Shown: positions 2,261 through 42,318 of the stretch, piece after piece | Layout: each line of letters starts with the position of its first letter | Position numbering within the stretch: the first letter of the stretch is position 1 | Origin: Alphaproteobacteria bacterium | GTDB lineage: Bacteria; Pseudomonadota; Alphaproteobacteria; UBA6615 | Reading direction: 5' to 3' | DNA: 64,000 bases | Assembly: GCA_028279245.1 (NCBI GenBank) | Contig: JANQOE010000040.1 | Location: 4,121-68,120, forward strand | Notes under the pieces: generated by a model | What the model saw: the letters and a program-made list of their open reading frames with translations, nothing else | What the model was told of the DNA's origin: nothing | Database searches by the model: none | Made by a program: the position numbers and the translations under genes

Positions 2261-2411
2261 GACGTGTCTTCATACCTGATTAGCCACCATCGTAACCCAC
2301 CGCGAAACTCGTCGTTGTGTCTTCGCCGAGTCACCAATCCGTCTGTGACTTTACGGAGTCGCAAATAATACGGGCCTGTCACCTTCATGCCCCACCACGC
2401 ATAATTGCACC

Positions 2412-4312: not shown

Positions 4313-4364
4313 GACTAGGTCGCAATCTCTCGCTTACATCCACCTCGATCTTCAGGAGCGCTAG

Positions 4365-5944: not shown

Positions 5945-5956
5945 AGCGGGGACAAC

Positions 5957-7030: not shown

Positions 7031-7033
7031 GCG

Positions 7034-9109: not shown

Positions 9110-9272
9110 ACGCGAAACTCCAACATCATCAACACGGAGGTAAGCATGCTGACTCTGCGCGGCCCCGTGACTTTTGTGAGTCGGTTCGGTCCACGGATAA
9201 GGCAATGAAGCGGCACGACGACACGGTCACACCGGGAAACCCGTGCGGGTAAGTCATGATTCCACGGCTTGG

Positions 9273-14035: not shown

Positions 14036-14914
14036 TCATTCGTGAAATATCTGACTCAGCGCCGCCTGCCGTATCAACGGGTGCATAAATCGATAGGTTA
14101 CAGCTGACTCATCTTGCTGCGGCTTACTAGCAAACCTGCCAAGATCGGCACCCAGTCGAAAAACACTACGAAGAAGACGGGACCGAATAATCGGATCGTA
14201 GTATGCGTAGACCGCACGATACAAATCCTGATCCTCCGGGTGTTCGTCATAAGGTATTTTGAATGAGAGCGGCTCGAACTCCTGCGTACATATAACCTCA
14301 CCCTGGTCAATGCCCGGCGCCATATAGATGCAGGTAGCCGCTGGCCTTTTCCGGACCAACATTGACCATAGCAATCCGTCCGCACCCCTGACATCCGGCA
14401 AGACCCCAGGGTGAATGTGCAGATACCGCGCACCTGCGATACTCAGCAGGGATTGCGGCACAATACCTCCACCCGTGTACAAGACCACAGCTGGTGCGGC
14501 TCCTGACACTACATCGATCAGTTTCGAATCCCCCAAACCGCTGACCATGACTCGACGTACGCGTCCGGCATAGTCCTCATACTTCCACCGCTTGTTATAC
14601 ATCTCGTCATGGAAGTCAGAGCAAAAGTCCGCCGCATCACAGCAGTCATGCGTCATCCTTGCCACCAGGCCCGCGAATTCCTTACGCAGTTGCCGCCCCC
14701 AATAGTTCAGCTGAATGTCCTGCATCCTCTCGGCATAAGCCATACGCATCTTCTTGGGCCACCAACGACCAACCTGCTTGTCGTTTGCCGGGGTTGCCTC
14801 GTAGACCATAAGTATGAGAGTGGCCGGTCGCAGTCCCATTCGCCGGAGACAGGTAAGGTAGGCTCGGCCAATCGGGCCTTCATGCTGGAGCACGACAAGT
14901 GGCGCGGTTGTCAT
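14036..14914 (-). CDS. Formyltransferase-family protein (Fmt/PurN/ArnA-N-like fold), possibly non-canonical
   Basis: YLHIHPGVLPDVRGADGLLWSML…MAPGIDQGEV aligns to the formyl_trans_N core (N-x-H-P-S-L-LP-x-x-RG…W). The catalytic Asn two residues before the His appears replaced by His (LHIH). Confidence 0.5.
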   Translation of the reverse strand: MTTAPLVVLQHEGPIGRAYLTCLRRMGLRPATLILMVYEATPANDKQVGRWWPKKMRMAYAERMQDIQLNYWGRQLRKEFAGLVARMTHDCCDAADFCSDFHDEMYNKRWKYEDYAGRVRRVMVSGLGDSKLIDVVSGAAPAVVLYTGGGIVPQSLLSIAGARYLHIHPGVLPDVRGADGLLWSMLVRKRPAATCIYMAPGIDQGEVICTQEFEPLSFKIPYDEHPEDQDLYRAVYAYYDPIIRSRLLRSVFRLGADLGRFASKPQQDESAVTYRFMHPLIRQAALSQIFHE

Positions 14915-15528
14915 GAATCCAGAACCGCTTCAAGCGTTCGCGCACAAAAGACTCGAAGCTCGCTGGATAGATCCTCACCCCCGAGAAGATCATATTTGTC
15001 CAGCGCGTTCATAGCCGAGTTGACGAGCCTGAGGGCCTTTCCTGCAGCCGTGGCGTCCACTATCTTGAGTGCACAGGCCCCGTACAGAAACCCCAAAACA
15101 AGAGCTGGCCAGACCACCGACGGGATCGGTGTTTTGGCAGCCGGCTTGTCCCAGTTCGCATCGTAGGAAAGCCATACTGTTCCAACGATGTCGACTTTGC
15201 GTGACAATCGTTCTAGAGCAAACAGCGTCTCGGCGGTTATTGGTCGACCGGCATTCTGCCCAAGTTGGTATAAGACAGCGGAAGTCACCCTCGCACTACC
15301 CTGGTGATCGTGTGTTGGCAACGTCTTCCTGGCCCGGTCAAGGTTTCCCGCCAATTCGTGAAACAGGTTCAGGAGCGTCGAGCCGACAGACCTTGATGCT
15401 CCAACCATCGAGTATGATTTGTCCGGGTGAGGATCTCTCGATGCGCCGCCGAGTACGTGGCTATTGCCGTCCGGTCGCACCTTGCCAGGGACGAAGGCCA
15501 TGGAAGCCCCCTCGCTACTTGTCTGCAA
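14911..15528 (-). CDS. Hypothetical protein, co-operonic with the formyltransferase-like gene
   Basis: 205-aa ORF whose stop overlaps the downstream start by 4 bp (14911-14914). No recognisable motif. Confidence 0.4.
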   Translation of the reverse strand: MQTSSEGASMAFVPGKVRPDGNSHVLGGASRDPHPDKSYSMVGASRSVGSTLLNLFHELAGNLDRARKTLPTHDHQGSARVTSAVLYQLGQNAGRPITAETLFALERLSRKVDIVGTVWLSYDANWDKPAAKTPIPSVVWPALVLGFLYGACALKIVDATAAGKALRLVNSAMNALDKYDLLGGEDLSSELRVFCARTLEAVLDS

Positions 15529-15727: not shown

Positions 15728-16417
15728 TCAAGCCGCATTTGCCGTTGGATCCTGCTCCGCTGGTGCGGGCTCGCCCATGGCAAGCGGCCCTTCAATCAGC
15801 CATTCCCACAGTCTACTTATCTCAGTGGATGCCTTCGATCCCGGTTCGCACTCACTAACAGCCCAGCCGTCAGCTAGCGCAGATGAAAAGACGGTTCTCT
15901 GACCTATCGAAACCGCAGCAACCTCATGTCCCCAATCCTCAAGTGCATCTCTGGCTTGGCGTGCTACGCCTGACTCACCGCAGAGACCGCGCGGAGGACA
16001 CGCGTTCAGCACAGCTACAGTTTCCGCATTTGCTTCATGCAGAAACTGCATTGTTCCCCCAATCGCGCGCAAATCCATCGCACTAGGCCGAGTCGGAACC
16101 AGGACCACGTCCGCGTCGCGAACCACTGGCAGGAGCCCGGACGAAGCGGCCCTTGGAGCCGTATCAAAGAACAGGTGCGTGACGCCTTGTTGTCGCGCAA
16201 CGCCGGCTACCTGCCTCGCCTGATCCAATCGGCACTCAACGAGAGTCGGCTGTTCTGATTTCCGCAGTCGCCACCAGTCACCCAGGCAGCGTTGCGGATC
16301 CGTGTCCACCACGCAAACCCAATTTCCCCTCCGACGTGCCACTTCGACGGCCAAGTTTAGGGTAAGCGTTGTTTTTCCAACACCACCCTTTTGATTGAAA
16401 ACTGCGACCGTAATCAT
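15728..16417 (-). CDS. ParA/MinD-family P-loop ATPase (BcsQ-like position next to a polysaccharide synthase)
   Basis: [23 protein letters not shown] deviant Walker A. I chose the start at 16417 giving the canonical short N-terminus; the ORF extends to 16471. Divergent from the Alg8-like gene. Confidence 0.8.
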
Positions 16418-16648
16418 CTGGACTGCTTCCGAACATCTAACACCTAGACTTGGTCGCTGAACGCAGCACATGTCGCAGTTCTCTTGAAATGCCCTAAGAC
16501 CGAATTCACTGCTTTGACCCTATCGGCAAAACTCGACCGGAACCTTTGGGCCGTTGCGGTTACATCGTGTTTCTCCGATCCTTCGATACCATTCCAGCAC
16601 CATGTCGGAGGCCAACCGACACCCAGCGGAGGCAATCACCAAAACGCC

Positions 16649-18160
16649 ATGTCATTGGCATTCTACTCACTTGTCTTGACGGCATATGCGGTCACTCTTC
16701 CTGACGAACTGCTTCTTCCGTCATCCCAGAAGTTCATCCTCCTACTCGGTGTCATTGGTATTTGGCGATACGGATGGGGCGGTCTTCACTTCATCCGTTC
16801 GATTGTCTTCCGGAAGCTTGTTTTTCCCGCCCAAAGGCAAAGAGCCATGCAGCTGGGTGCATCCAGCAACCCGCCGCATGTTTATCTGCTCCTAACGACC
16901 TTCCGCGTCGACGCTGAGAGCACACGCCTCACATACCAAGCGGCGTTTGCCGAAGCCGCGCGTGCCTCCTGCCCCGTAACGATCGTCGCATCCATCGTCG
17001 AGATGAGCGATCAAAGGACGATCAAGTCACTGTTTGAGGAAAGCGGCACACCGCAGCATGTTCGGCTAATACTCGTTCGGATTCAGGGAAGCGGAAAACG
17101 CGACGCATTGGCCGCCGGGTTCCGCGCAATCTCCCATACAAGTCCGCCGCCAGGATCTTTGACGGCAGTTCTCGACGGTGACACGATAATCGCGCCAAAG
17201 ACCATTGAACGGTGTGCACCATTTTTTGTCCTCAACCCAAAGCTAGGTGCCCTAACCACCGACGAGGACAACATAAGTGTAACGCGCTCACGTCTATACC
17301 GTGAGTGGTATCATCTACGTTTTGCGCAGCGACATATACTCATGTCATCCATGGCGCTCTCCGGTCGGGTTCTCACGCTTACCGGCCGGCTATCCATGTT
17401 CCGTACCGAACTCGTTACCGCGCCCTCATTCATCGCTCAAGTCGAGAACGACTTCATTGAACATTGGCGCCTTGGCCGGTTCCGTTTCCTCACAGGCGAT
17501 GACAAGTCCACATGGCACTGGCTGCTACAGCGGGGTTGGCAGATGGCCTACATCCCCGATGTTCGAATCCTGACTATTGAACAACCACCCCATCCGAACT
17601 TCTTCATTGGCGCCACGAAGCTGCTGACACGGTGGTCCGGCAACACAATAAGAACAAATGCCCGGGCACGGCGCGTACCTGCCTCCACCATTGGGCCGTT
17701 CGTCTGGTGGGCACTGATAGACCAACGTCTATCAAAGTGGACATCACTATTCGGACTGACGCTGGCGACACTGGGTGCCATAGTTGCCGGCATTCAGATC
17801 CTATACTTCTACATCTTCTGGATTGGCCTCACACGGCTCATGCAGACCTTCATGCTACTCAGCGCAAGATCACACATATCCGCGCTCCATCCATTTCTCA
17901 TCTACTTCAATCAGATATATGGATCCCTGATCAAAGTATACGTGGCGAGCCACATGGACCGCCAGAAATGGACCAGGCAGGACACCGCGCTGCGAGATAT
18001 GAGGGCGGGGCTCGCCCGAACATTTAGACGCATATCATCAGGCTATGTTGTTGCGACCTCCGTGATGACTCTGGTGGTTGGTGCGGGATTCGTCGTCGGC
18101 GCTTTTGGAGACGCCGATCTCCACCGCGTCGTCAGCTATGTAGGCAGGGGAGTACATTGA
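16649..18160 (+). CDS. alg8: Alg8-like processive family-2 glycosyltransferase (mannuronan/hyaluronan/chitin-synthase type polymerase)
   Basis: N-terminal TM helices, cytoplasmic GT-A domain with DGD (DxD), GDDKS(T)W and LTRWSGN (Q/RxxRW-type) motifs as in HAS/NodC/Alg8, then C-terminal TM bundle. ORF is open from 16484; I prefer the Met at 16649 (MSLAFYSLVLT…, GGAGG upstream), where the hydrophobic core begins. Confidence 0.65.
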   Translation: MSLAFYSLVLTAYAVTLPDELLLPSSQKFILLLGVIGIWRYGWGGLHFIRSIVFRKLVFPAQRQRAMQLGASSNPPHVYLLLTTFRVDAESTRLTYQAAFAEAARASCPVTIVASIVEMSDQRTIKSLFEESGTPQHVRLILVRIQGSGKRDALAAGFRAISHTSPPPGSLTAVLDGDTIIAPKTIERCAPFFVLNPKLGALTTDEDNISVTRSRLYREWYHLRFAQRHILMSSMALSGRVLTLTGRLSMFRTELVTAPSFIAQVENDFIEHWRLGRFRFLTGDDKSTWHWLLQRGWQMAYIPDVRILTIEQPPHPNFFIGATKLLTRWSGNTIRTNARARRVPASTIGPFVWWALIDQRLSKWTSLFGLTLATLGAIVAGIQILYFYIFWIGLTRLMQTFMLLSARSHISALHPFLIYFNQIYGSLIKVYVASHMDRQKWTRQDTALRDMRAGLARTFRRISSGYVVATSVMTLVVGAGFVVGAFGDADLHRVVSYVGRGVH

Positions 18161-19323
18161 AGGCATTGCAGTTAACCTACGAAGCGGAGCGTCAACGACA
18201 ACACGCGCGCTACCGCATACCCGCCATCGCCGAAATCAACGGAACGCGCTTCGTCGTAGCCAATTGGTCAGTTGGAGGTTTCTGTGTAGAGAATTTCCAC
18301 TCTTCCGCGGCGCTTCCCGAAACATTCCCGACAACACTAAGGTTCCAGTTTCAGTCCTTTGAATTAGCTCTCGACGTACAGGCTGAACTTCAACGCCGGG
18401 TAACGGATAGCGAAGGCGATACGATCGGATGTCGTTTTACCGGCATCGACCAACACCAACGATCACAGCTCCAATACGTCGCGAACGCATTCTTGTCCGG
18501 TGAGATTGTGTCGACTGGCGACGTCCTTCATGTCGTAAGTCGAGAAGACCTCAACCAGGTCCAGCGTGCCCTCCAGATCACCCAACAGAAGACCTTGGGC
18601 ACCCGGATGAAGCGCTTCGCCGGCCTTGGTCTAACGACCCTTGCCGGCATCGCACTGTTCGGCTTCATTGCCGACACAGTCTTCAATCGTGTCTTTGTTG
18701 TCGACGCTTTGTCTGGGGTTGTAGATGCCCCCATTGTCGTCGTCCGGTCACCACAGCCCGGCTACTTCGAACCATTTGGGGGCGGATCCGGCAACAACGT
18801 AAGCGCCGGAGAACCACTTGCCGCGGTCGAGCTCATTGGTGGCGGCGCGACCACACTCGATAGTCCGTGCAACTGTAACATCATAGAGTACCACGCCCGA
18901 TCTCGAGAGTTCGCCGCCCTGGGCGAACCATTGATCACACTCCTGCCGGAAAAAACGGGCACCGAGATCCTCGCTGAGGTCTTCATCGCCGACTTTCAAC
19001 GCATCGCGATTGGTGACCCGGCGACCATCAGGTTTCCGGATAGGCGCGAGTTGGCAGGCCGCGTGCTACGCGTTCAGCACGTGACCACGCCCGAGCAGGA
19101 TCGCTCAACCCAACTTCAGAGCCCGCCCGCAAACCCCCTTACTTACGGACACGTCGTTGTCGCGCCGAACGAACCTGTTAACGTAAGGTTCCTCGGCACG
19201 CCCGTAAGCGTGCGGATCAACACTTTCCGCGCGCTGGCCGCCTTCAGCGACCGTACCAAAGCATTTCCCACAAACGTTGCCCGCGCGGATTCGGGTCGAC
19301 CACCAATCCCAGAGGAGCGGTAA
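18157..19323 (+). CDS. alg44: Alg44-like c-di-GMP-binding PilZ-domain / membrane-fusion (HlyD-like) co-polymerase
   Basis: N-terminal PilZ motifs RQHAR…(RxxxR) and NWSVGGF (D/NxSxGG), one TM (LGLTTLAGIALFGFIA), then periplasmic MFP-like beta-rich domain. TTG start overlaps the synthase TGA stop (TTGA). Confidence 0.7.
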   Translation: MKALQLTYEAERQRQHARYRIPAIAEINGTRFVVANWSVGGFCVENFHSSAALPETFPTTLRFQFQSFELALDVQAELQRRVTDSEGDTIGCRFTGIDQHQRSQLQYVANAFLSGEIVSTGDVLHVVSREDLNQVQRALQITQQKTLGTRMKRFAGLGLTTLAGIALFGFIADTVFNRVFVVDALSGVVDAPIVVVRSPQPGYFEPFGGGSGNNVSAGEPLAAVELIGGGATTLDSPCNCNIIEYHARSREFAALGEPLITLLPEKTGTEILAEVFIADFQRIAIGDPATIRFPDRRELAGRVLRVQHVTTPEQDRSTQLQSPPANPLTYGHVVVAPNEPVNVRFLGTPVSVRINTFRALAAFSDRTKAFPTNVARADSGRPPIPEER

Positions 19324-19325
19324 AG

Positions 19326-19715
19326 ATGGCTGGACTTAGCGAACAGTTAGCTGACAACGAAGAAGTGAAACGCGATTGGACAGAACGGCCGTGGGGAACC
19401 CACGCCACCATCTACCGGTCCGATGCCGGCGTGATCCACATCATGAGCGTCAAGCCCAAGGCACGTCTCTCACTTCGGCAGAACTTCGACCATACCGAAC
19501 ACTGGACCATTGCTCAGGGCAACGCCGAGGTTCGGCACGGTGAGCAAATCCATAATCTCGGCAAGGGCGGCTCGATTCTCATACCCAACGGGACTGTTCA
19601 CGCGCTTGAGAATGCTGGCGACACGCCGCTGGTACTTGTCCAACTCCAACTGGATAAAGCCACCGAAGGCACAGACGAGGATATCCCGGCCACTCAGACA
19701 TACCCCGCGAGTTAA
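19326..19715 (+). CDS. Cupin-2 protein homologous to the C-terminal mannose-6-phosphate isomerase domain of type-II PMI/GMP (AlgA/ManC)
   Basis: ERPWGTHATIY…HIMSVKPKARLSLRQNFDHTEHWTIAQGNAEV…ILIPNGTVHALENAGDTPLVLVQLQ matches the type-II PMI cupin consensus (RPWG…LSLQ.H.HR.EHW…G.A.V…IP.G..H.L.N.G). Confidence 0.7.
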   Translation: MAGLSEQLADNEEVKRDWTERPWGTHATIYRSDAGVIHIMSVKPKARLSLRQNFDHTEHWTIAQGNAEVRHGEQIHNLGKGGSILIPNGTVHALENAGDTPLVLVQLQLDKATEGTDEDIPATQTYPAS

Positions 19716-21337
19716 TGCGTCGCACAGCAACGAACCAAAGCCGTACCGGGTTCTTGCCGGTTCTATCTGCGTATGGCCGTCCACTCGTGGCCACGCTGTG
19801 CGCTGCTGCCCTCGCAATAAATGTCGGACTCGCCGACGCCCGCGCGGCTGAGAACACTGATCCACCAATCGAAATCACGCCAATTGATGGACCGGTCTAT
19901 CATCCGGCACTCCCCGAACTCCCCGACCTTACACCCTACACCACGGAGGCCGTCCGCAATCTGATACCCCGGACCTTCGACGGCAGGAAAGCCCAGCTCC
20001 GCCCGCTGCAGGACGTCCCCACCGTCTCCTTGGCTCATCTGTTCGAGATGAGTCCCTTCTGGCTAGAGCAAGGCGACCTAGACCCGAAGGGCATCGTCCT
20101 GCAACGCGGCACCTACACCCTGGAAATGCTCGAGCAGCACATCGACGATGCCGCCGTATTCGCCAGAGAAGCGGAAAGTACCTACCTGCTACGACGGCCC
20201 ATAATCGTCCTTCCGAACGCCACCCTGGTCATCCGTGACGGAGAGTGGTTGAAGCTAGATCTGCACGCCGGCGTCTTCATTTCTGTCACCGGCCAGTTCA
20301 TCATGGCGGATTCCAGCCTCACCACCTGGGACAGGCATACCGCCACCATCGGCAAACGTGAGGAAATACCTCCCGAAACACTGCTTCTCTACGGTCTACA
20401 AAAACCCCGACCGTTCTATCTAGCAATGAACGGGTCCAAGACTTACATGGCGAACTCCCATATCGCCGGACTCGGCTACAAAGGCATCAACAGCACGTTC
20501 GGGCTATCGCTATCACCAACACCAAAGAACGAACTCGGATTGGGCAAACACTTGAGGCGATTGCCGGATCCAACGGGCTGGTTCATCGGCAACAGGATCG
20601 AGAGCTTGTTCTTCGGTTTCTACACGCATAAGGCCCGAGATGTTGTCGTTGTCGGGAACGATTTCGTCAGAAACGTCATATATGCGATTGATCCACATGA
20701 CTATTCTGTAAACCTCATCATTGCGCGAAACATCGTCCGCGAAACCAAGAAAGCCCACGGCATCATTTTCTCGCGCGGCGTAGCCGACAGTTGGATATTC
20801 GAGAATGTAGCGTACCGAAATGCTGGAAGTGGCATCATGCTCGATCGCGACAGCACCGACAATGTAATTTACGGGAATACCGTCATCGAAAACCTGGGTG
20901 ACGGCATCGCGATATACGAAAGCAACAATGCACTCGTCTGGGGAAATGATATTCGACTAAATGGTCGGGACGGCATTTATGTTCGCAACAGCTGGGACGC
21001 CGAGATTAGAGAGAATAACATTCAGAGAAATGGCGAGAATGGTATCGAAGTCGCGGTCGTCAACATCGATTTTCTAGAGACGAGAGACTTCGAGCTTGAT
21101 CCATACGACAAGCGGTCGAAGGCTCGAATAGTGGCGAACATCTTCGACGCGAACACAAACAGTGCAGTCGCCACCAAAGACGCCGACATAGTCCATCTAG
21201 CCGAAAACCATTACATGGACTCCGGACCGCTTTTCTTTTCCGGGGACTTAGAGACGATTGGCGGAAGACTAATCCGGGATCTGTTCGTGAAAAACCTCTC
21301 TGTCGATATCGTCAAACGTGGAGTGTTGAATGACTGA
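19715..21337 (+). CDS. algG: Periplasmic right-handed beta-helix protein, AlgG-like mannuronan C5-epimerase
   Basis: Signal peptide, tandem CASH/PbH1 repeats (…RNVIYAIDPHDYSVNLIIARN…NAGSGIMLDRDSTDNVIYGNTV…DGIAIYESNNALVWGNDI…DGIYVRNSWDAEIRENNI…). Contains the DPHD tetrad that is catalytic in Pseudomonas AlgG. Confidence 0.65.
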   Translation: MRRTATNQSRTGFLPVLSAYGRPLVATLCAAALAINVGLADARAAENTDPPIEITPIDGPVYHPALPELPDLTPYTTEAVRNLIPRTFDGRKAQLRPLQDVPTVSLAHLFEMSPFWLEQGDLDPKGIVLQRGTYTLEMLEQHIDDAAVFAREAESTYLLRRPIIVLPNATLVIRDGEWLKLDLHAGVFISVTGQFIMADSSLTTWDRHTATIGKREEIPPETLLLYGLQKPRPFYLAMNGSKTYMANSHIAGLGYKGINSTFGLSLSPTPKNELGLGKHLRRLPDPTGWFIGNRIESLFFGFYTHKARDVVVVGNDFVRNVIYAIDPHDYSVNLIIARNIVRETKKAHGIIFSRGVADSWIFENVAYRNAGSGIMLDRDSTDNVIYGNTVIENLGDGIAIYESNNALVWGNDIRLNGRDGIYVRNSWDAEIRENNIQRNGENGIEVAVVNIDFLETRDFELDPYDKRSKARIVANIFDANTNSAVATKDADIVHLAENHYMDSGPLFFSGDLETIGGRLIRDLFVKNLSVDIVKRGVLND

Positions 21338-24300
21338 ATACCGTCGGAGAACCAAGTCCAGAAAGCAGGAAATGAAGTCATATCCAAGCACTTTCTTGAT
21401 CGCGACCCTGCTTACTCTGGCCGCCTGCGGGGCCGCAAACACCAGTCCCACATCTGATCAGGGAGCCGAACTCACCCAGCCTCGATCAGAGCAATCAGCG
21501 GCAGATCGGGCAGGTTCGGAACGCGCCCGCGAACTCCTGCAACTTGGCGAACGCGCCGAGTTGGGCATTGATCGGCGTCAGGACTACTGGAAAGCGTCAT
21601 GGTGGTATCGGCGTGCCGCTCAACAGGGAAGTGAAGAGGCGCGCGCACGGTTAGGCGCCTTGTACGTAAACGGCCGCGGTGTCTCGAAAAACGTTGAGGA
21701 AGGGCTCCGGCTCCTGCAAATCGCCGCAGACCGCGGCCACGGTCCTGCCTCCGCGCGACTTGGGGAAATCTACGAGAAGGGCAAACATGTCGAGCGGGAT
21801 CTAGCAACCGCGGCACACCACTACGAAAACGCTGCGCAAGCGGGCGACCCCGAGGCAATGGTCAAGCTCGGCGAACTCTACGAAGCAGGCACCGGCCGGA
21901 CACAAAACGAAACGGAGGCTGCAAAGTACTTCCAACGCGCCGCCGATGCCGGTGACACCACAATCCTCCGCAAACTCGCCGGATACTACGACAAAGGCAT
22001 CGGAGTGGAGCAGAGCTACGCCGTCGCGGCCGACCTATACAACCGCGCAGTAGCCGCGGGAGATACCAGAGCACTCCGCTCATTGGCCTCTTACCACGAA
22101 AACGGACTCGGCGTACCGCAGAGCTTCGACCAGGCCGCAGCACTTTATGACGCCGCTGCCGCAACGGGAGATGCTAAAGCGCTGCTGGGCCTCGCCTCGC
22201 TCTATGAGCGCGGCTTGGGTGTCCCACAAGACATTGAACGGGCAATTCAACTACACGAGCAAGCCATTGCCGCCGGCGAGAAGAAGGCCTTGCGACAGCT
22301 CGCTGACCTGTATGTGAGCAACCCGTCCATACTCGAAGGCGAAGCAACAGTTGCACAGGCCGTAACCGATCAACAGCAATGGGCCCAAGCGGAGACTCCA
22401 CGCCGTTCAAGTGCCTTCGAGCAAGCCGCTGAGCTCTATCGCCGCGCGGCGGAGGCAGGTGACGTCACAGCACTGAGACGCCTAGCCGAGCTTTATGAGA
22501 CCGGACGCGGCGTCCAGCGGGATCCTCACCAGGCTGCGGATCTGTACAAGCAAGCAGCGGATGCCGGTGACGTGAAGTCCATAAAGGCCTTGGCCGAAAT
22601 GTATGTGGTCGGCCGCGGTGTCGAACAGGATTACCGTCGCGTTGTAGAGCTGTACGAGCAAGCCATCCGGCATGGCGATACAGACGCGGTAATGGACCTC
22701 GCCGATATCTACAAAGAGGGCAGAGGTGTCCCGCACGACTATGACCGGGCGCTTACACTCTACGAGCAAGCTGCGGCAACGGGCGACACCAAAGCTCTTC
22801 GCCAACTCGCCGAAATGCACAGAGTCGGCCTAGGCGTGGAAATAGACCACATACGCGCCGCGGAATTCACCAAAAACGCGGCTGATGCCGGCGACCTAAG
22901 AGCGATGCGTGATCTGGCCTCGCTGTACGAGAACGGTGAAGGCATCGAGCAAGACTTTAGCCAAGCCGCGGAACTGTACCAAGCAGTGATCGACGCTGGC
23001 GATGCGAAAGGACTACGAAAGCTCGCCGCGCTCTATGAGAAGGGGCGGGGAGTCACCCAGGACTACGACCAGGCGGCAAGCCTGTACGAACAGGCCCTTG
23101 AGGCCGGAGATCTTCAGGCAATTCGCAACCTAGCCAAAATGTATGAGGAAGGCCTGGGCGTTGATCGTGACTTGGTTCGCGCGGCTGAGTTACTTGAACG
23201 CGGTGTCGCGGCCGGCCAAGTAAAAGCCTTACGGGATCTGGGCGCCCTGTACGAAACCGGACAGGGCGTCACTCAAGACTTTGAACGCGCCGCAGAGCTG
23301 TACGGCCAGGCAATCGAAGCAGGTGACAACAAAGCAGCACGCCAACTGGCCGCGCTCTATATGGACGGCAGGGGCGTAGCACAGGACATCCCACGAGGCA
23401 TACAGCTCTACGAACAAGCAATCGAAGCTGGGGATCAGACAGCACTTCGCACCCTGGGAAAGATGTTCGCCGACGGTGACCAAGTCGAACAGGACATCCC
23501 ACGGGCTCTGGAACTCCTGAAGCGCGCAGCAGACGCCGGTGACACGCGCGCAATGCTCGACCTAGCTGAACTCTACATCGAGGGTCACGGCGTGGAGCCC
23601 GATGCCGACCGTGCTATCGAGTACTACGAGAAAGCCAGTGACGCCGGCGACTTGGACGCTCTAAGGAGCCTCGCGCAACGCTATGCGGCAGGCGCGGGAA
23701 TCCAACAGGACCCCGACGAAGCGATCAGGCTACTGACTCGAGCTGGCAACGCAGGAAGCACCCAAGCACTGGTGGATTTGGCTGCGCTTTACATTGATGG
23801 TGAAAACATCCCAAAAGACCCATCTAAAGCGGCTGCCTTGTACGAGCAAGCCGCGACAACCGGTGACGTAGCGGCACAGCGCAAACTAGCGGACCTATTG
23901 CTTTCCGGTGACGGTCTGGCGGTCGACCCAGTGCGAGCAGCAGGCCTCTATCAGCAGGCGGCAAACGCGGGTGATGCCAGCGCTGCCGACAAGCTCGGAA
24001 GGCTATATGAGAGTGGCATCGGCGTGCGCCAGGACCACACGCATGCCGTCCAACTCTATGAGCAAGCAATAGCGGCTGGCGCAGGCGCGGCCGCAAAGCG
24101 GCGGCTTGGAAAACTGCTGGTCGACGGCCAAGGCATCAAACATGACCCGGGCCGCGCGGCACAGCTGTTTCAAGAGGCGATTGACGGAGGCAGCCACGCC
24201 GCAATCCTGAACCTGGCAGAACTGCTTGAGGACGGCCTGGACGATCCACCCGACGACCTTGCGCAAGCCGCTTCCCTATATGAGACCGCAGCGAGCGTAG

Positions 24301-25985
24301 GCGATGCAACTGCGGCACGACGGCTTGCGAACATCTACCGCAACGGACGCGGGGTGACCCGAAACTACGAACGCGCCGCAGAGCTATTCCTAACAGCGGC
24401 GGAAAACGGTCAGGCCAACGCACTGATAGAACTTGGGACCATGCATGAAGAGGGCGAAGGCTTCCCGAAGGACATCGGCCAGGCCGCCGAACTCTACTGG
24501 CGCGCGGCCGATGCCGGCGAACCAAAAGGGCTCAGGAAGTTGGCCGATCTGACGAAAGCAGGGCTTCTCGGCCCGGAAAATGATACCGGCGCCATAGAGC
24601 TATACAAGCAGGCTGCGGATACAGGAGACGCCCACGCGTTGACTCGGATTGCCAGCATGCATGAGGCGGGCGTCAACGGCGGCGACCCAGATTTTGAGAT
24701 GGCAGGCAACTACTATCGCCGCGCCATCGATGCTGGTGACAACTCGGCAAAACGTAAACTGGCAGCCATGTACGCGGACGGTCGCGGTGTTCCGCAAGAC
24801 TTGGCGCGCGCCGCCCGTATCTACGAAGACGCCGTCGAATCGGGCGACTACAAGGCGGCGCCTGCTTTGGCCCGCTTGTATCAGGAAGGGCAAGGCGTTG
24901 CGCAGAGTCCAGCCGACGCGTTTCAACTTTATCAGCTTGCCGTGGACAACGGCGACCAAGCTAGCCTGCGACCACTCGCCATAATGTACGAAGAGGGCCG
25001 CGGGACCACACAGGACTTCGTCCACGCCGCCGAACTCTACGAACGCGCCGCCGCGAACGGCGACGACAAGGCATTAGTCAGGCTCATTCTTTTGCAGGAG
25101 CGGGGAGCCGTCCCATCTACCGACAAAATGAAGCAAGCTCTCCTAGATCAACTGATCGACGCCGGTGAAGCTAAGCAACTCAACCGCCTAGCCGACACTT
25201 ATTTGGCAAGTCTCGATGTTGAGCGGATCGCCACAAGCGCCATCCCGCTCTATGAGCGTGCAGCAGACCTCGAGGACCCCCACGCCCATCTCCAACTGGC
25301 CAGGATCTTTGATGAGGGCTATGGCACATCACAAGACTATGAACGGGCAGCCGAACACTATACGGCGGCGATCGAACTCGGTAACGCGGGCGGACTACCT
25401 GGACTGGCGCGGCTCCACGAACTCGGCCTTGGCATGCCCCAGGACCCTCAACAAGCCGAGGCGCTACATGACAGAGCTCTCAAGGCGGGCACCCCAACCA
25501 TGCCAGAGAGCCTCGTGGAATCAGCACGACTACGGCGTGGAACGGAGTTGCTCCAGTCAGAAAACAGCCAAGATGCTCAAGTCGGAGTCCAACTCATTCA
25601 GGAGGCTGCAGACGGTGGCAGCATACGGGCAATGCGCCAGCTAGGGCAGTTGTACGAAAAGGGTGAGTTGGTGGCTGCCAGCCCAGAACTAGCGGCGGAG
25701 TGGTACGAACGAGGCGCGCGTGACAATGATCTTGCCGCTGTCCACCGGTTGGCCATGCTGTACCTAACCAACCCGACAGCAACCGACACGCAAAGGCAAG
25801 AAGGATTGGTCCTACTGGCCACTGCTGTCCAACAGGAGCATCCGCCAGCCATAGCTGAATTCCAGATGGCCCTGGACACCCTAGGCATTGACGAAGGGCA
25901 ATTCGAGGCGGCTCTCGAAAACGCCGGTACCAGACTTGCGTGTGGTGTGTACATCCTGGACGGTGCGAACTGTGCCACGCCTTGA
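21330..25985 (+). CDS. Giant Sel1-repeat (TPR-like) lipoprotein, AlgK-like scaffold expanded to about 35 repeats
   Basis: Lipoprotein signal and lipobox (LLTLAACGAANT). From about residue 60 on, the Sel1 unit (A…LA.LY..G.GV.QD…A..LY..AA.AGD..A) recurs at least 33 times by my count. 1551 aa. Overlaps the upstream gene by 8 bp. Confidence 0.8.
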   Translation: MTEYRRRTKSRKQEMKSYPSTFLIATLLTLAACGAANTSPTSDQGAELTQPRSEQSAADRAGSERARELLQLGERAELGIDRRQDYWKASWWYRRAAQQGSEEARARLGALYVNGRGVSKNVEEGLRLLQIAADRGHGPASARLGEIYEKGKHVERDLATAAHHYENAAQAGDPEAMVKLGELYEAGTGRTQNETEAAKYFQRAADAGDTTILRKLAGYYDKGIGVEQSYAVAADLYNRAVAAGDTRALRSLASYHENGLGVPQSFDQAAALYDAAAATGDAKALLGLASLYERGLGVPQDIERAIQLHEQAIAAGEKKALRQLADLYVSNPSILEGEATVAQAVTDQQQWAQAETPRRSSAFEQAAELYRRAAEAGDVTALRRLAELYETGRGVQRDPHQAADLYKQAADAGDVKSIKALAEMYVVGRGVEQDYRRVVELYEQAIRHGDTDAVMDLADIYKEGRGVPHDYDRALTLYEQAAATGDTKALRQLAEMHRVGLGVEIDHIRAAEFTKNAADAGDLRAMRDLASLYENGEGIEQDFSQAAELYQAVIDAGDAKGLRKLAALYEKGRGVTQDYDQAASLYEQALEAGDLQAIRNLAKMYEEGLGVDRDLVRAAELLERGVAAGQVKALRDLGALYETGQGVTQDFERAAELYGQAIEAGDNKAARQLAALYMDGRGVAQDIPRGIQLYEQAIEAGDQTALRTLGKMFADGDQVEQDIPRALELLKRAADAGDTRAMLDLAELYIEGHGVEPDADRAIEYYEKASDAGDLDALRSLAQRYAAGAGIQQDPDEAIRLLTRAGNAGSTQALVDLAALYIDGENIPKDPSKAAALYEQAATTGDVAAQRKLADLLLSGDGLAVDPVRAAGLYQQAANAGDASAADKLGRLYESGIGVRQDHTHAVQLYEQAIAAGAGAAAKRRLGKLLVDGQGIKHDPGRAAQLFQEAIDGGSHAAILNLAELLEDGLDDPPDDLAQAASLYETAASVGDATAARRLANIYRNGRGVTRNYERAAELFLTAAENGQANALIELGTMHEEGEGFPKDIGQAAELYWRAADAGEPKGLRKLADLTKAGLLGPENDTGAIELYKQAADTGDAHALTRIASMHEAGVNGGDPDFEMAGNYYRRAIDAGDNSAKRKLAAMYADGRGVPQDLARAARIYEDAVESGDYKAAPALARLYQEGQGVAQSPADAFQLYQLAVDNGDQASLRPLAIMYEEGRGTTQDFVHAAELYERAAANGDDKALVRLILLQERGAVPSTDKMKQALLDQLIDAGEAKQLNRLADTYLASLDVERIATSAIPLYERAADLEDPHAHLQLARIFDEGYGTSQDYERAAEHYTAAIELGNAGGLPGLARLHELGLGMPQDPQQAEALHDRALKAGTPTMPESLVESARLRRGTELLQSENSQDAQVGVQLIQEAADGGSIRAMRQLGQLYEKGELVAASPELAAEWYERGARDNDLAAVHRLAMLYLTNPTATDTQRQEGLVLLATAVQQEHPPAIAEFQMALDTLGIDEGQFEAALENAGTRLACGVYILDGANCATP

Positions 25986-26541
25986 TCCGCCGCCCGCTCG
26001 CATCTCCAAGCGGGGCACACACACCATCGTCAGATCCATAAGCAGCGCCATAGTATTTTTTGCCGCTGCGGTGGCCACGACGACGGCCGCGGCTGCGGAC
26101 ACTCCCGTCGTTGACCCCAAGCGTTTCGAGGCCGTGCAAGCGCTGAACCTTCAGCTAGAGGCTACGACCCTGGCGACCTCGGAACGCAGTCCAAATGATT
26201 CACAACGCGTCAACGGCAATCAAAGCCGCAAAACCTTGGCAGAAATACTTAACAGCGGCCCAGCCGAACGTTTCCAGCGAAAGATGGCCGCCAGCAACCA
26301 TCTTCATCAGCTAAGAAACGAACGGGTTGCACGCGAGCGCGCCGAGCAAGAGGAAGCCACCGGAGAAGATCGAGCCCGCATCGATCGCGCGACAAGTCGA
26401 CGCCGCGCGAGCGAAGTTATCGCCCGGCACATACCGAAAAGAGAGGTCGATGAACTCCAAGCCGCTCTCACCGAAGCGATGGACCTCGTTAACCTGCACC
26501 GCGAGGCGGAGAACCTGATCCAGCTCGAGTTCGACCGCTAA
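25888..26541 (+). CDS. Hypothetical secreted, highly charged/coiled-coil protein
   Basis: ORF opens at TTG 25888 inside the 3' end of the Sel1 gene. A GTG at 25972 would give a clean Sec signal (…RISKRGTHTIVRSISSAIVFFAAAVATTTAAAA/DTP) with only a 14-bp overlap. The rest is R/E-rich helical. Confidence 0.45.
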   Translation: MTKGNSRRLSKTPVPDLRVVCTSWTVRTVPRLDPPPARISKRGTHTIVRSISSAIVFFAAAVATTTAAAADTPVVDPKRFEAVQALNLQLEATTLATSERSPNDSQRVNGNQSRKTLAEILNSGPAERFQRKMAASNHLHQLRNERVARERAEQEEATGEDRARIDRATSRRRASEVIARHIPKREVDELQAALTEAMDLVNLHREAENLIQLEFDR

Positions 26542-27740
26542 ACCGTTTGCTGCCGCCTCAAATCATCAACAGCCACGGCCTCATTCTGCTGGTCCCGGCG
26601 AGAAGACAAGAGTTCCATAAGCCGAGCCGCCCCGACCGAGCCGCTCCGACCGACATTAAACACAAGCCGATCCCGTGCAGTTCGAATACGTGCAACCGCA
26701 ACCTCATTTGCATCCGTCGCTAGTCGTCGGATCACCGCTCCAATCTCGCCGAGCTGATCCGGTGACACCACGGCGCCAAGTTCCGCCCGAACGCTGACCT
26801 CCACTGGCTCCAGACCCAAGCGATGGTAATCCGGGTTACGTACCTTCCGCGGGACGTCCACAAACACCACCGGTCGCTCTTGGCTAAACGCAAAGTCCAG
26901 CGCCGCCCCAGACCAATCGCTCACCATGATATCCGCGCCAAGCAATGACTCGGCCGACGAGATGTTATCGTCGTAGACGAACCGTTCATGAGATCCGAAC
27001 CGGCTCCGTATCTCCTTTAGTGTGTTCGCGGACCGCCGCTTCGTCTCTGGATGGGGCCGAACCGTGACCGCCAACCCGGCATCGATCAACGCACCAACGA
27101 CTTCGTCCCCCAACGTTTCCAAAAGACCATCTGGCCCCCATGACGGGGCGACAAGAACCGATATCGGGTCATCAGGTCCTCTTGTCCGCTGGAGTCCTTG
27201 TGCTCGTCCAGCAATTATCCGATCAAGGCGACCATAACCATGTTCGAACAGCCGTTTTTCCGGCAACCCATGAAGTGCCTCCGCCGCACGTATCTCCTCA
27301 ACATGATGCGGTCCGGCACAGAATATCTCATCGAAATGGTCGAACGCTTCTTGTCGATAGACCATGTGCGAGCTGACGATCGAGTGATGGATATACACAT
27401 ATGAAACAGGGTAGACGGAGCGCTTTAGCTGGAGGGTCTGCAGATCGGGCGTGGTCATGACGAGAACCTCCGCCTGCAGGGTCCGGAAAAGCATGGTTCT
27501 GGTAACTTGGTCGCCAACAAAGAACCCGGAAACCCGACCATCGTCTAGCTTGAGGCCAGGGTCATTGCGGTCCGACGCCAAGTAGCAGATGGATTGGCCG
27601 TGATCCTTCAGAAGGCTCAAAATCACCGGCTCCAGATGCGGCCAGCTAAAGCTCCCCTCCGAATAGAAGACAATCCCACGCGCCTCGGCGGGCAGTGACT
27701 GAAAGCGGCGCGAACCACGCCAAGCATCCATCAAGCGCAT
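26538..27740 (-). CDS. CDP-alcohol (CDP-glycerol-type) phosphotransferase, TagB/TagF family
   Basis: C-terminal MVSDWSGAALDFAFSQERPVVF parallels the TagF active-site region (…TDYSS..FD……P…F). 400 aa, soluble. 4-bp overlap with the convergent upstream ORF end. Confidence 0.6.
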   Translation of the reverse strand: MRLMDAWRGSRRFQSLPAEARGIVFYSEGSFSWPHLEPVILSLLKDHGQSICYLASDRNDPGLKLDDGRVSGFFVGDQVTRTMLFRTLQAEVLVMTTPDLQTLQLKRSVYPVSYVYIHHSIVSSHMVYRQEAFDHFDEIFCAGPHHVEEIRAAEALHGLPEKRLFEHGYGRLDRIIAGRAQGLQRTRGPDDPISVLVAPSWGPDGLLETLGDEVVGALIDAGLAVTVRPHPETKRRSANTLKEIRSRFGSHERFVYDDNISSAESLLGADIMVSDWSGAALDFAFSQERPVVFVDVPRKVRNPDYHRLGLEPVEVSVRAELGAVVSPDQLGEIGAVIRRLATDANEVAVARIRTARDRLVFNVGRSGSVGAARLMELLSSRRDQQNEAVAVDDLRRQQTV

Positions 27741-28534
27741 AACAACTCGCCTGGCTCGGCCAACTGACAGAATCGGGCCAAGTCCCCCCTACTCTTCCTA
27801 TCTTCGATGAAGTTGACATCTGCAACCGAGTCCACCTCAAGCCAACCACCGCTAATACACGCCGCATGTACAGGCTCACCGCGATCAACCATGATCTGCA
27901 GGAAGTCTGTCATGTACAGGTCGCGTTTCTTCCGCCCTCGGATGCCAAAGTCGTTGTCCAGATTTCGGTAAAGATCTACCAGATGGCGGCCCGACCCAGC
28001 AGCTATTTTCAGTAATCCGACGTAACGAGCATCGATGTCGTCGGAGCTTGTTGGTACATCCCCGATCTCCGTAATAAGGTTTGACGGACCCATCTTAAGG
28101 GTTTCCGAGTCCTCTAGAAGATCGTTGTACCGAGCCCGCCAATAAGCCCGCCAGGACGTGTCCACCGTCACGGCAACGCTTCCGTCCTCCTGCAGCAGGC
28201 TTCTTAGTACCCGCGCCTCAAAAACGATATCGCCGTACGAAATGATGGCGTCTTCACCAGAACCAAGCACCTCCTCTGCACACATCAGCGACTCAACCAT
28301 GTTTGAGGTGGCGTAGGCTGGGTTACGAATTGTGCGGCAACCGGAAGGCCGAATCTGATCGCCTTCGAAGCCGGTCACGATGGTTATGTCGGTGATACCG
28401 CACTCACGGAGAACCGCCAGCTGACGGTGCAGAATGGGCACCTCACCGATCTCCACTAAGCACTTCGGTCGATTGGTCGTTAAGGGACGGAGTCGCGTCC
28501 CCTGGCCGGCCGCAAGAATGATCGCCTGAGTCAT
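27731..28534 (-). CDS. Sugar/alcohol-phosphate nucleotidyltransferase (LicC/NTP_transferase family; likely cytidylyltransferase)
   Basis: AIILAAGQGTRLRPLTTNRPKCLVEIG…ITDITIVTGFEGDQI aligns with LicC (AIILAAGLGTRLRPMTENTPKALV…INDIIIIVGY). 10-bp overlap with the downstream gene. Confidence 0.75.
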   Translation of the reverse strand: MTQAIILAAGQGTRLRPLTTNRPKCLVEIGEVPILHRQLAVLRECGITDITIVTGFEGDQIRPSGCRTIRNPAYATSNMVESLMCAEEVLGSGEDAIISYGDIVFEARVLRSLLQEDGSVAVTVDTSWRAYWRARYNDLLEDSETLKMGPSNLITEIGDVPTSSDDIDARYVGLLKIAAGSGRHLVDLYRNLDNDFGIRGRKKRDLYMTDFLQIMVDRGEPVHAACISGGWLEVDSVADVNFIEDRKSRGDLARFCQLAEPGELLCA

Positions 28535-29229
28535 TTCGTTCCTTCAAACAGCCGCTTTATCCGGCCAATGTCCGATTCTCGAGAAGGTCCCGGGCGCTCC
28601 GGGTGCCACATGAACCCCTCGCAACAACGCCATGTCTTGTGTCGAAAACCTTCGATCGACCCGTCGTCGGCGACTACAGTCGGGTCCAAGTTGTCGGCAA
28701 CGCCACTAGGCAACACGGCATAGTCATGAAAGCTGTTGACGCTGAATGAGCGCGATCCGTCTGTCGGGTCCAAAGCAAAGACCGTGTGCTCTGTTCCCGC
28801 GTGTCCCTCTATGTGATCGAGACTGCCGCCAAAGTGTACGTTGAGTACCTGCATGCCACGGCATATCCCCAGTATGGGAAGCGCGCGCGCGTGGCATTCA
28901 CGCACCAGCCGAAACTCGAACTCATCCCGTTCGGCGGCCGCCGTGCGCGCATCATCAAGATGCGCCAGGTCGTTCCCACCTGTGAGGATGACGCCACAAA
29001 GGTCTAACGCATCCAAGTAGGTCGAGGTCTCATCAGTTACCGAGTTGCTCAGCGGTATGGGCAGGAACCCAATCGTCCATAGGAGCCGGGCCCAAGCCTG
29101 ATCAAGACAGTCGCGCCGCTCTTGTCCCGAATAGAAGACCTCGACACGTTGGGTGAGCCCGATGCGTCTCACCGGACCGAAGTCACGTGCATGGCTGCCT
29201 CGGCTCGACGGTGTCACCAAACGTTCCAA
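28531..29229 (-). CDS. Class-I glutamine amidotransferase-like hydrolase (peptidase C26 / PuuD-like gamma-glutamyl hydrolase)
   Basis: ILGICRGMQ nucleophile-elbow Cys, downstream His/Glu (FMWHPERPG). The start is probably internal (GTG near VRRIGLTQRV), which would relieve the 47-bp overlap with the next gene. Confidence 0.7.
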   Translation of the reverse strand: MERLVTPSSRGSHARDFGPVRRIGLTQRVEVFYSGQERRDCLDQAWARLLWTIGFLPIPLSNSVTDETSTYLDALDLCGVILTGGNDLAHLDDARTAAAERDEFEFRLVRECHARALPILGICRGMQVLNVHFGGSLDHIEGHAGTEHTVFALDPTDGSRSFSVNSFHDYAVLPSGVADNLDPTVVADDGSIEGFRHKTWRCCEGFMWHPERPGPSRESDIGRIKRLFEGTK

Positions 29230-34412: not shown

Positions 34413-34622
34413 ATGACTTTGCAAACGCGGATTAAGTTCGGAGCTAGCGTACTATTCGTCGCATTGACCGCAAGTGCACCAGCCTACGCGTACCTGGATC
34501 CCGGTACAGTCACCATGGCCTTCAGTGCTATCGCGGCTGGCCTTGCCGCCGGGCTCTTGTACCTCAGGGTTGGTTGGTCAAAAGCGGTCGGTTTCTTCAC
34601 AAAACGAAAGAAAGTGGACTAG
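34413..34622 (+). CDS. Hypothetical small exported/membrane protein
   Basis: 69 aa; signal-like N-terminus (ASVLFVALTASAPAYA) and a second hydrophobic segment. Ends one base before the large fusion gene. Confidence 0.3.
   Translation: MTLQTRIKFGASVLFVALTASAPAYAYLDPGTVTMAFSAIAAGLAAGLLYLRVGWSKAVGFFTKRKKVD

Positions 34623-42241: not shown

Positions 42242-42318
<77 letters not shown>

Follow-up and report, generated by a model that had tools for sequence, protein, structure and literature searches.

An alginate-type synthase operon

The stretch of DNA described here, hereafter the window, comprises 64,000 nucleotides (nt) of contig JANQOE010000040.1 (assembly GCA_028279245.1), from an alphaproteobacterium of the UBA6615 lineage. 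It carries the genes of a likely alginate-type exopolysaccharide (EPS) system, nested within a set of genes resembling those of the phosphoramidate pathway of Campylobacter jejuni (Table 1). The core is a six-gene operon on the plus strand (positions 16649-26541), with overlapping or abutting junctions from alg8 through to a small gene that we call orf201. The open reading frames (ORFs) of the alginate module, ten or more in number, are all intact.

Protein families were assigned with Pfam and NCBIfam on the large ORFs (for Pfam, likely genes of at least 150 amino acids (aa)), by sequence searches of the PDB, and by BLASTP and tblastn comparison with the proteins of Pseudomonas fluorescens PS910. 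This canonical comparator (locus L090) is among the best 80 of at least 591 Alg8 loci; its flanks read algD-alg8-alg44-algK-algE-algG-algX-algL-algI, and the identities of its genes were confirmed by Pfam (Alginate_exp, ALGX, Alginate_lyase, MBOAT and others). NCBIfam scores were read against the equivalog cut-offs of the models, which are 700 bits for AlgG, 700 for AlgK, 158 for BcsQ, 250 for gamma-glutamyl-CDP-amidate hydrolase and 501 for PRK05849.

The first gene encodes a family 2 glycosyltransferase (GT2). Its start is called at 16649 on the source contig, giving 503 aa; 16649, rather than 16484, is most likely the true start. The translation contains the motifs DGD, TTDED, TGDDKS and LLTRWSGN, and in our alignment of GT2 relatives (alignment A1) the DGD, TED-like, TGDDKS and RW motifs are invariant. 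The protein is 46.5% identical to P. fluorescens Alg8 over 460 aa (BLASTP, E 3e-153; 45-47% by tblastn), and JGI names its relatives 'glycosyltransferase Alg8 / mannuronan synthase'. A PDB sequence search returned no match at all, hence none to BcsA, hyaluronan synthase (HAS) or similar synthases.

The alg44-like gene, which overlaps the alg8 stop by 4 nt, encodes a protein whose PDB matches are to the Alg44 PilZ domain only, and which is 28.5% identical to P. fluorescens Alg44 over 295 aa (BLASTP, E 6e-30). Both motifs for binding cyclic di-GMP (c-di-GMP) are present, as RQHAR and NWSVGG; family-wide, RxxxR occurs in 76/76 Alg44 homologues, Pseudomonas included, and [D/N]xSxxG in nearly all. 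Since the PilZ domain keeps these motifs, synthesis is probably gated by c-di-GMP. No Pfam match to GGDEF was obtained among the window ORFs scanned, so whatever supplies the PilZ domain with c-di-GMP would not be encoded nearby. An Rfam scan of the window returned tRNA only, with no c-di-GMP riboswitch, and scans for sigma-70 promoters and terminators were uninformative.

The third gene had been described as a stand-alone phosphomannose isomerase (PMI) cupin. The PMI-type domain is there, but its metal motif has diverged: in an alignment with the C-termini of Zavarzinia AlgA and of ManC from locus L007, it reads NFDHTEHW where AlgA/ManC have HHH(R)AEHW, which makes PMI activity doubtful. For the beta-helix protein that follows, the top NCBIfam model is AlgG (270 bits, E 4e-80), a score under the equivalog cut-off. 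It matches the AlgG structure 4NK6 with 221 bits, is 34.5% identical to P. fluorescens AlgG over 414 aa (BLASTP, E 4e-66), and retains both DPHD and the downstream SR, which are reported to hold the catalytic His and Arg of AlgG (Wolfram et al. 2014).

AlgK is a lipoprotein of about 475 aa, made of tetratricopeptide (TPR)/Sel1 repeats, that partners AlgE. The Sel1 lipoprotein of the window is about three times as long, matches P. fluorescens AlgK at repeat level only (36% over 92 aa, E 2e-08) and scores 161 bits with the NCBIfam AlgK model. The AlgK-like lipoprotein of the preliminary description thus stands as a Sel1 lipoprotein, but it is AlgK-like in kind only, and the last 0.6 kb of the interval described there is a separate ORF, orf201. 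From its repeats and lipobox, the long protein is a candidate periplasmic scaffold.

The orf201 product matches no family in Pfam or NCBIfam. It resembles weakly (29% over 72 aa, E about 1e-6) a 321-aa protein encoded between algG and algE in L005 (14283-15248), a locus from a gammaproteobacterial metagenome-assembled genome (MAG); the matching part of the window is 25578-26529. The same region is seemingly fused to the C-termini of beta-helix (AlgG) genes of about 800 codons in loci L004 and L006. This type of region may be a conserved accessory of atypical alginate systems, so far unrecognised.

AlgD, a candidate lyase and the missing alginate genes

A gene for AlgD lies 7 kb from the synthase module, in a separate operon. 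Its product aligns end to end with the P. aeruginosa GDP-mannose 6-dehydrogenase 1MFZ (462 bits, versus 222 bits for the best UDP-glucose dehydrogenase), which rules out a UDP-glucose dehydrogenase, and it is 48% identical to P. fluorescens AlgD over its full length (BLASTP, E 3e-150). Only three sequences are more than 55% identical to it. Sequence P0242, on a 1.6-kb contig, reaches 81%; a scan of metagenome contigs with AlgD as query returned only distant loci of the UDP-glucose dehydrogenase type. With this gene, the core proposed in the preliminary description (Alg8, an Alg44 combining PilZ and membrane fusion protein (MFP) domains, an AlgG with DPHD, and a true AlgD 7 kb downstream) is borne out by genes that are present, intact and homologous to the canonical proteins, and the motifs listed there (GDDKS/TRW, RxxxR, NxSxGG, DPHD) are all found in the translations. 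The GT2 matches Alg8 and the beta-helix protein is similar to AlgG, as had been suggested.

The same description held that AlgE, AlgX, AlgL and AlgI are absent, and for the 64 kb this is largely so. No large ORF of the window matches Alginate_exp, the Pfam family of AlgE, and tblastn with two AlgE queries was null. Neither Pfam on the large ORFs nor tblastn with the canonical proteins revealed an AlgX, an AlgI or an AlgL of polysaccharide lyase family 5 (PL5) in the window (no direct query was made for AlgJ or AlgF). Porin-sized ORFs at 42677-45060 (+) were rejected as antisense shadows of a PAS histidine kinase.

The part of the claim that did not hold concerns AlgL, which is missing only as a PL5 enzyme: a gene in the minus-strand run between the operon and algD encodes a secreted protein with an N-terminal CBM96 module and a C-terminal beta-helix resembling PL9/Pel9A. 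Its residues 265-603 are 44-50% identical to the product of a Pel9A-like gene located between algD and alg8 in three loci, L004-L006. The founding member of family CBM96 is an alginate-specific binding module (PMC9971899). A PDB sequence search with the protein gave nothing useful. On the strength of these similarities, it is likely a lyase and a non-orthologous analogue of AlgL.

Alginate-type loci in other bacteria

A profile scan of one genome per species, with alignment A1 as query, yielded Alg8-like loci in at least 591 species, with Pseudomonas Alg8 within the top 80 matches. Identities to the window Alg8 form a continuum from 56% down to 45%, and Pseudomonas falls inside this range. Carriers include Microvirga, Rhizobium (on a megaplasmid among others), Marinobacter, Pseudoalteromonas, Hahella, Devosia, Zavarzinia, Asticcacaulis and Sphingobium, as well as Campylobacterales and Bdellovibrio-like MAGs and many others. 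Some genomes have duplicated alginate-type synthases: two different Alg8-like proteins (P0034 and P0036) are encoded on one 1.26-Mb contig.

The presence or absence of neighbouring genes was scored by tblastn in the 10-kb flanks of the best 80 of these at least 591 loci (about 84 including others). The Alg8-Alg44-AlgG-AlgD core is near-universal across the loci examined. Only about 28 of about 84 loci have a recognisable AlgE in these flanks, and about a third have AlgX and AlgI. A large Sel1 gene (560-1000 aa) occurs at 53 other Alg8 loci, and the 1551 aa of the window is the longest seen. The layout without AlgE is thus the majority state among related loci, including those of cultured Microvirga, Rhizobium and Zavarzinia. 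In Zavarzinia the order is algD-alg8-alg44-algA, a 1259-aa beta-helix gene, a 715-aa Sel1 gene and algL; in a gammaproteobacterial MAG we find algD, a PL9-like gene, alg8-alg44-algG, the 321-aa gene, algE and a Sel1 gene.

The locus shares with the Pseudomonas/Azotobacter alginate systems Alg8 and AlgD at orthologue level, homologous Alg44 and AlgG, a Sel1/TPR lipoprotein and the logic of synthase-dependent polymerisation from GDP-mannuronate. It differs from them in lacking AlgE, AlgX, a PL5 AlgL and AlgI in the window, in a Sel1 protein three times the size of AlgK, in the reduction of AlgA to a diverged cupin, in the removal of algD to another operon 7 kb off, and in a lyase candidate that is not of family PL5. 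Its closer likeness is to the 'atypical alginate operons' lacking algKE or algGXLIJF that were already reported in environmental bacteria (Bundalovic-Torma et al. 2020, PMC7112194), and to the Zavarzinia, Microvirga and Rhizobium loci: the core is kept, algKE and/or algGXLIJF are lost, the Sel1 gene is large and AlgA is split. In these atypical loci, unlike in the window, algD has stayed beside alg8, and there is neither a phosphoramidate cassette nor an EptA-like gene or a ParA.

The locus falls in a large class of 'atypical' alginate loci that are experimentally unstudied and come mostly from alphaproteobacteria; they have oversized Sel1 proteins and lack both a nearby AlgE and the AlgIJFX acetylation genes. 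The suggestion that it represents an undescribed system does not survive this comparison: with the same core in at least 591 species, it is a fresh member of an already known, uncharacterised class and not an isolated oddity. Alginate biology has been built almost wholly on Pseudomonas and Azotobacter, and most alphaproteobacterial loci have neither AlgE nor acetylation genes nearby. How bacteria without AlgE export and tailor a polyuronate is a testable question, of relevance to rhizosphere, marine and wastewater biofilms.

A phosphoramidate-type cassette around the alginate genes

What sets the window apart is a second group of genes, hereafter the cassette, which resembles the C. jejuni pathway for O-methyl phosphoramidate (MeOPN; Cj1415-Cj1418, Cj1421/1422). 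Its largest gene encodes a LicC-like nucleotidyltransferase fused to a glutamine kinase. The protein scores 920 bits with PRK05849, well above the cut-off, contains a PEP-utilizers swivel domain, and has homologues that JGI names 'glutamine kinase'; the Cj1418-type assignment was made from these family models and homologue names, without direct comparison with the Cj1418 sequence. A PDB sequence search was of no use here. Identity to the kinase genes of loci L007-L010 is 49-65%.

The other enzymes lie on the minus strand. For the C26-family protein, the gamma-glutamyl-CDP-amidate hydrolase model gives 134 bits, under its cut-off, with the runner-up at 42 bits; the gene is 45-51% identical to cassette genes of other loci. 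The cytidylyltransferase has the CTP:phosphocholine cytidylyltransferase 1JYK as top PDB match and is 41-46% identical to its counterparts in L007-L009. For the TagF-like protein, 49-50% identical to cassette proteins of L007 and L008, the PDB search found nothing useful and the single-sequence AlphaFold model had a predicted local distance difference test (pLDDT) score of 36.

Three smaller genes complete the set. The 70-aa membrane peptide encoded upstream of the kinase gene is 64% identical to a 71-aa ORF in L010 and 37% to a 73-aa ORF in L007, and weakly similar to an 81-aa ORF in L008 (37% over 41 aa, E 0.001). This peptide is unannotated and resembles a sorting-signal-type peptide. The o205 product, without any Pfam or NCBIfam match, is 37% identical to the product of the gene that follows the glutamine kinase in L010. 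At the outermost left, o292 has a Pfam Formyl_trans_N match that is under the cut-off.

The trio of kinase, C26 hydrolase and LicC-like enzyme is the signature of cytidine diphosphoramidate synthesis in C. jejuni. The differences from that organism are that the window kinase is fused to an extra nucleotidyltransferase, that no 3'-kinase of Cj1415 type is present, that the transferase is TagF-like, that o205, o292 and the 70-aa peptide are added, and that the genetic linkage is to a polyuronate made by a synthase and not to an ABC-type capsule. The fused-kinase cassette is widespread, with about 1800 matches in Pseudomonas, Halomonas, Marinobacter, Acidovorax, Nitrospinota and others, and phosphoramidate-type glycan decoration may be much more common than one would gather from the literature on Campylobacter.

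Elsewhere (L007, L008, L094) the cassette is contiguous and reads: 70-80-aa peptide, kinase, hydrolase, cytidylyltransferase, TagF-like gene, small protein, Formyl_trans_N-like gene and sometimes a methyltransferase. Kinase, hydrolase and cytidylyltransferase are syntenic in many cassettes. In the window the order is o292, o205, parA, alg8 to orf201, TagF-like gene, cytidylyltransferase, hydrolase, lyase, phosphotransferase, algD, 70-aa ORF and kinase, so that all alginate genes lie inside the outer boundaries of the cassette. The contacts between the two sets are close: orf201 and the TagF-like gene are convergent and overlap by 4 nt, the lyase gene is directly 5' of the hydrolase gene and overlaps its longest ORF by 47 nt, and 48 bp separate the end of algD from the 70-aa ORF, the first of the cassette on that side.

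The arrangement recurs in part on one independent 8-kb metagenome contig, L010, where alg44 and alg8 (47% identity) are divergent from algD, a 71-aa ORF, the kinase gene and an o205-like gene. The L010 kinase is the closest relative of the window kinase, at 65%, and its AlgD, also at 65%, is the closest on a contig long enough to examine. Linkage of alg8/alg44, algD and kinase was seen in the window and in L010 only, and at 0/80 of the other Alg8 loci.

A putative periplasmic phosphotransferase in the same operon

The minus-strand operon that holds the lyase gene has a phosphotransferase gene as its fifth member. The product itself gives a sub-threshold match to the Pfam Sulfatase family, and 39/40 of its family members match that family. 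Searching representative proteins brought up some 1750 relatives, whose alignment, covering the Thr nucleophile and the metal ligands, shows no variation at D180, T216, H359 and D411 and hardly any at H412. The AlphaFold2 model built on this alignment (pLDDT 92.9) retrieved PbgA, MCR-1, EptA, LtaS and BcsG as top Foldseek matches, with a probability of 1.00 and TM-scores of 0.33-0.40. A PDB sequence search gave nothing useful, and similarity to BcsG, EptA, MCR-1 and LtaS is at fold level only.

The protein has a Thr nucleophile and no CxPxR motif; with this combination the enzyme looks like a periplasmic phosphoryl-group transferase and not a sulfatase. Like BcsG, EptA, MCR-1 and LtaS, it has five transmembrane (TM) helices, a periplasmic domain of alkaline-phosphatase fold and a Thr nucleophile, and like BcsG it sits beside a synthase-dependent EPS system. 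BcsG adds phosphoethanolamine to cellulose. The kinship with these enzymes goes no further than the fold, and other Alg8 loci do not have the gene.

Table 1. Genes of the alginate-type locus and the surrounding cassette (window positions)
Feature	Position	Strand	Basis of assignment
o292, 292 aa, outermost left cassette gene	14036..14914	-	44% over 290 aa to the 290-aa gene closing the L008 cassette
o205/o196, small protein found after the TagF-like gene in other cassettes	14911..15501	-	35% to L008 144-aa gene
Orphan ParA-type ATPase, divergent from alg8	15728..16471	-	NCBIfam ParA_partition, 154 bits, full length
Alg8 orthologue, membrane GT2 of mannuronan-synthase type, 503 aa	16649..18160	+	BLASTP, motifs, names of relatives
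Alg44-like co-polymerase: N-terminal PilZ, one TM helix, periplasmic MFP	18157..19323	+	Pfam PilZ and HlyD_3
Stand-alone cupin from the PMI domain of AlgA/ManC, 129 aa	19326..19715	+	Pfam MannoseP_isomer, 79 bits
AlgG-like periplasmic mannuronan C5-epimerase (putative): signal peptide, right-handed beta-helix	19715..21337	+	NCBIfam, PDB 4NK6
Giant Sel1-repeat lipoprotein, 1551 aa	21330..25985	+	25 Sel1 repeats, 641 bits (Pfam); lipobox LAAC
orf201, small secreted protein, 201 aa, last gene of the operon	25936..26541	+	Signal-peptide-like N-terminus
TagF-like CDP-donor phosphotransferase	26538..27740	-	Pfam Glyphos_transf, 31.5 bits, above cut-off
LicC-like cytidylyltransferase, putative Cj1416 role	27731..28534	-	Pfam NTP_transf_3
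Class-I glutamine amidotransferase / peptidase C26, putative Cj1417 role	28531..29229	-	NCBIfam gamma-glutamyl-CDP-amidate hydrolase
Secreted CBM96 + PL9/Pel9A-like beta-helix protein, candidate polyuronate lyase	29183..30994	-	Pfam CBM96, 42.6 bits; Beta_helix
Inner-membrane phosphotransferase of the alkaline-phosphatase superfamily, 5 TM helices and periplasmic domain	30988..32679	-	AlphaFold2 and Foldseek
AlgD, GDP-mannose 6-dehydrogenase	33054..34364	+	PDB 1MFZ match
70-aa membrane peptide: signal peptide, AYLDPG motif, TM helix, basic tail	34413..34625	+	Upstream of the kinase gene
LicC-like nucleotidyltransferase fused to Cj1418-type L-glutamine kinase, 1052 aa	34629..37787	+	NCBIfam PRK05849

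A decorated alginate, or two systems in one island?

Judging from the sequences, the locus quite likely encodes a synthase-dependent EPS system of alginate type, that is, one producing poly-mannuronate/guluronate. AlgD would convert GDP-mannose to GDP-mannuronate, which the Alg8 orthologue and its Alg44-like partner would polymerise and pass across the inner membrane, with synthesis gated by c-di-GMP through PilZ. In the periplasm the AlgG-like beta-helix, where DPHD and the catalytic Arg are retained, would epimerise some mannuronate to guluronate, the 1551-aa lipoprotein would serve as scaffold in place of the short AlgK, and the CBM96 protein would take over the trimming and clearing role of AlgL.

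Could the cassette and the phosphotransferase act on this polymer? It is a tentative possibility that phosphoryl-type groups (phosphoramidate or phosphoethanolamine-like) are attached to the polymer or to its precursor instead of O-acetyl groups. In a more speculative version, cytidine diphosphoramidate would be made in the cytoplasm by the cassette enzymes, the TagF-like enzyme would load phosphoramidate onto a precursor or lipid carrier, and the EptA/BcsG-like enzyme would move the group to the nascent polyuronate in the periplasm, replacing O-acetylation. An alginate bearing phosphoramidate (P-N bonds) or otherwise decorated with phosphoryl groups through this particular relay seems somewhat unlikely. 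If it did exist, its chemistry would imply altered charge and gelling, and it would be the second phosphoryl-decorated synthase-made EPS after phosphoethanolamine cellulose; it would also be the first case of phosphoramidate on a synthase-dependent EPS, and among the few reported outside Campylobacter capsules. Should the nesting be incidental, the locus would be one more ordinary representative of a known, unstudied class.

Several points weigh against the scheme. TagF-like enzymes work at the cytoplasmic face, whereas modification of a chain made by a synthase takes place in the periplasm. Export is unexplained with no outer-membrane porin in the 64 kb (the porin could be elsewhere in the genome). 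The locus has no mannose-1-phosphate guanylyltransferase/ManC and the metal site of its cupin is diverged, so the supply of GDP-mannose must come from elsewhere. The AlgG, AlgK and hydrolase scores are all under their equivalog cut-offs. There is no Cj1415-type kinase, nor does any ORF of at least 90 aa in the window have a classical Walker A motif; no homologue of the methyltransferase of the L008 cassette was found in the window, whose sole methyltransferase (5183-5944) is unrelated. Finally, the link to decoration rests on gene neighbourhood on two contigs, with the cassette at 0/80 of the other Alg8 loci, and five other cassette loci (L007, L008, L009, L093, L094) have no alg genes and lie in Wzy-type or other contexts.

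These last observations also fit a different explanation, namely that two independent systems share one glycan island: the cassette and the EptA-like enzyme would decorate lipopolysaccharide (LPS) or another surface glycan, and the interleaving would result from the assembly of the island. This is quite possible, if short of probable. The cassette is clearly portable, being found with a Wzy/WecG cluster (L007), with unrelated genes (L008, L009, L093) and with GT4/GT2 genes (L094). The window has a Wzy_C/GT2/GT4/Gmd cluster of its own at 0.2-9.2 kb, which could be the real target of the cassette, and the lower GC content from 14 to 42 kb, ending at a tRNA-Arg, is compatible with an acquired island. 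EptA-type enzymes classically act on lipid A, to which they add phosphoethanolamine, and unmethylated phosphoramidate has been reported on LPS (PMC3907429). Phosphoramidate decorates the LPS of Xanthomonas and Shewanella. However, the lyase gene, a conserved member of the alginate module, is immediately 5' of the hydrolase, cytidylyltransferase and TagF-like genes in one tight minus-strand run whose ORFs overlap or abut, and algD is only 48 bp from the first cassette ORF. The pairing of algD and kinase with alg8 and alg44 moreover recurs in L010 at only 65% identity, and has thus been kept across divergence.

The remaining alternatives concern the alginate module itself. It is unlikely that the polymer is not alginate but another polyuronate or a modified mannuronan, the AlgG-like protein acting mainly as scaffold or lyase, with pure mannuronan as the result, or the precursor being modified in the cytoplasm before polymerisation. 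The distance of AlgG from the equivalog cut-off (270 bits versus 700), the lack of acetylation machinery, an AlgD lineage distinct enough to have three sequences above 55%, and the coupling of algD to the kinase gene and not to alg8 would all fit such a polymer, but the catalytic motifs of AlgG are kept, the partner lyase bears a CBM96, a module family of alginate-specific origin, and Alg8 is equally close to its Pseudomonas orthologue and to many relatives in alphaproteobacteria. It is quite unlikely that the module is a remnant in decay or unable to export, with the chain stuck in the periplasm for want of AlgE and the cupin a truncated relic of AlgA. Such a remnant would account for the missing porin and the degenerate metal motif, and the orphan ParA and low-GC island would fit a recent acquisition; the ten or more intact ORFs with their overlapping junctions and preserved catalytic and c-di-GMP motifs argue otherwise, and the predominance of AlgE-less layouts among related loci argues for a working alternative exit. 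Very unlikely, finally, is a ParA acting as a functional analogue of BcsQ that positions or activates the synthase complex. The preliminary description had placed it in the position of BcsQ. In favour, parA is divergently adjacent to alg8 (the shared intergenic region is 177 bp), and there is a match to the BcsQ model, of 47.5 bits and restricted to the N-terminal P-loop. Yet the best full-length assignment is plasmid partition, and the best matches are ParAs of small alphaproteobacterial plasmids (35-43%); tblastn revealed no ParA within 10 kb of Alg8 at any of the 80 other loci, and none on L010, a short contig. We therefore dropped the BcsQ reading; this ParA is probably incidental or a mobile-element relic.

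What is new at this locus is the nesting of the alginate genes with the cassette, the co-operonic EptA/BcsG-like transferase, the CBM96 + PL9-like lyase candidate and the recurrence on one other contig. The nesting with the cassette and the EptA/BcsG-like gene is specific to this lineage, on the basis of two contigs.

Genomic context

A GC content of about 65% had been put forward for the region, a value that the module does not reach. The alginate module is at 0.58 and the 14-42 kb stretch at 0.56-0.58; 0.63 is attained only beyond a tRNA-Arg(TCT) gene (42242-42318, minus strand), which is located exactly at the step from about 0.57 to about 0.63. The 14-42 kb block, comprising the alginate genes, the cassette, a regulator and a phospholipase D (PLD)-like gene, may be a horizontally acquired island. 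The window proteins that were looked up are all singletons in a collection of 15 billion proteins.

To the left, positions 210-9205 hold a separate Wzy-type glycan cluster with a GC content down to 0.52. Its genes encode Wzy_C, DUF5672, GT2, GT4, a weakly sulfotransferase-like protein, a methyltransferase, Gmd, an epimerase resembling GDP-fucose synthase and another epimerase. Beyond the kinase gene, at 38073-40221 (+), a LuxR-type response regulator gene overlaps the gene for a 476-aa Sel1 protein, membrane-anchored and without lipobox, which has ExoR- and AlgK-like repeat matches and may regulate the EPS locus from the periplasm. The PLD-like gene follows at 40515-42164 (-). Near the right end of the window, at 61006-63018 (+), a further gene combines CHASE2 and class III nucleotidyl cyclase domains.

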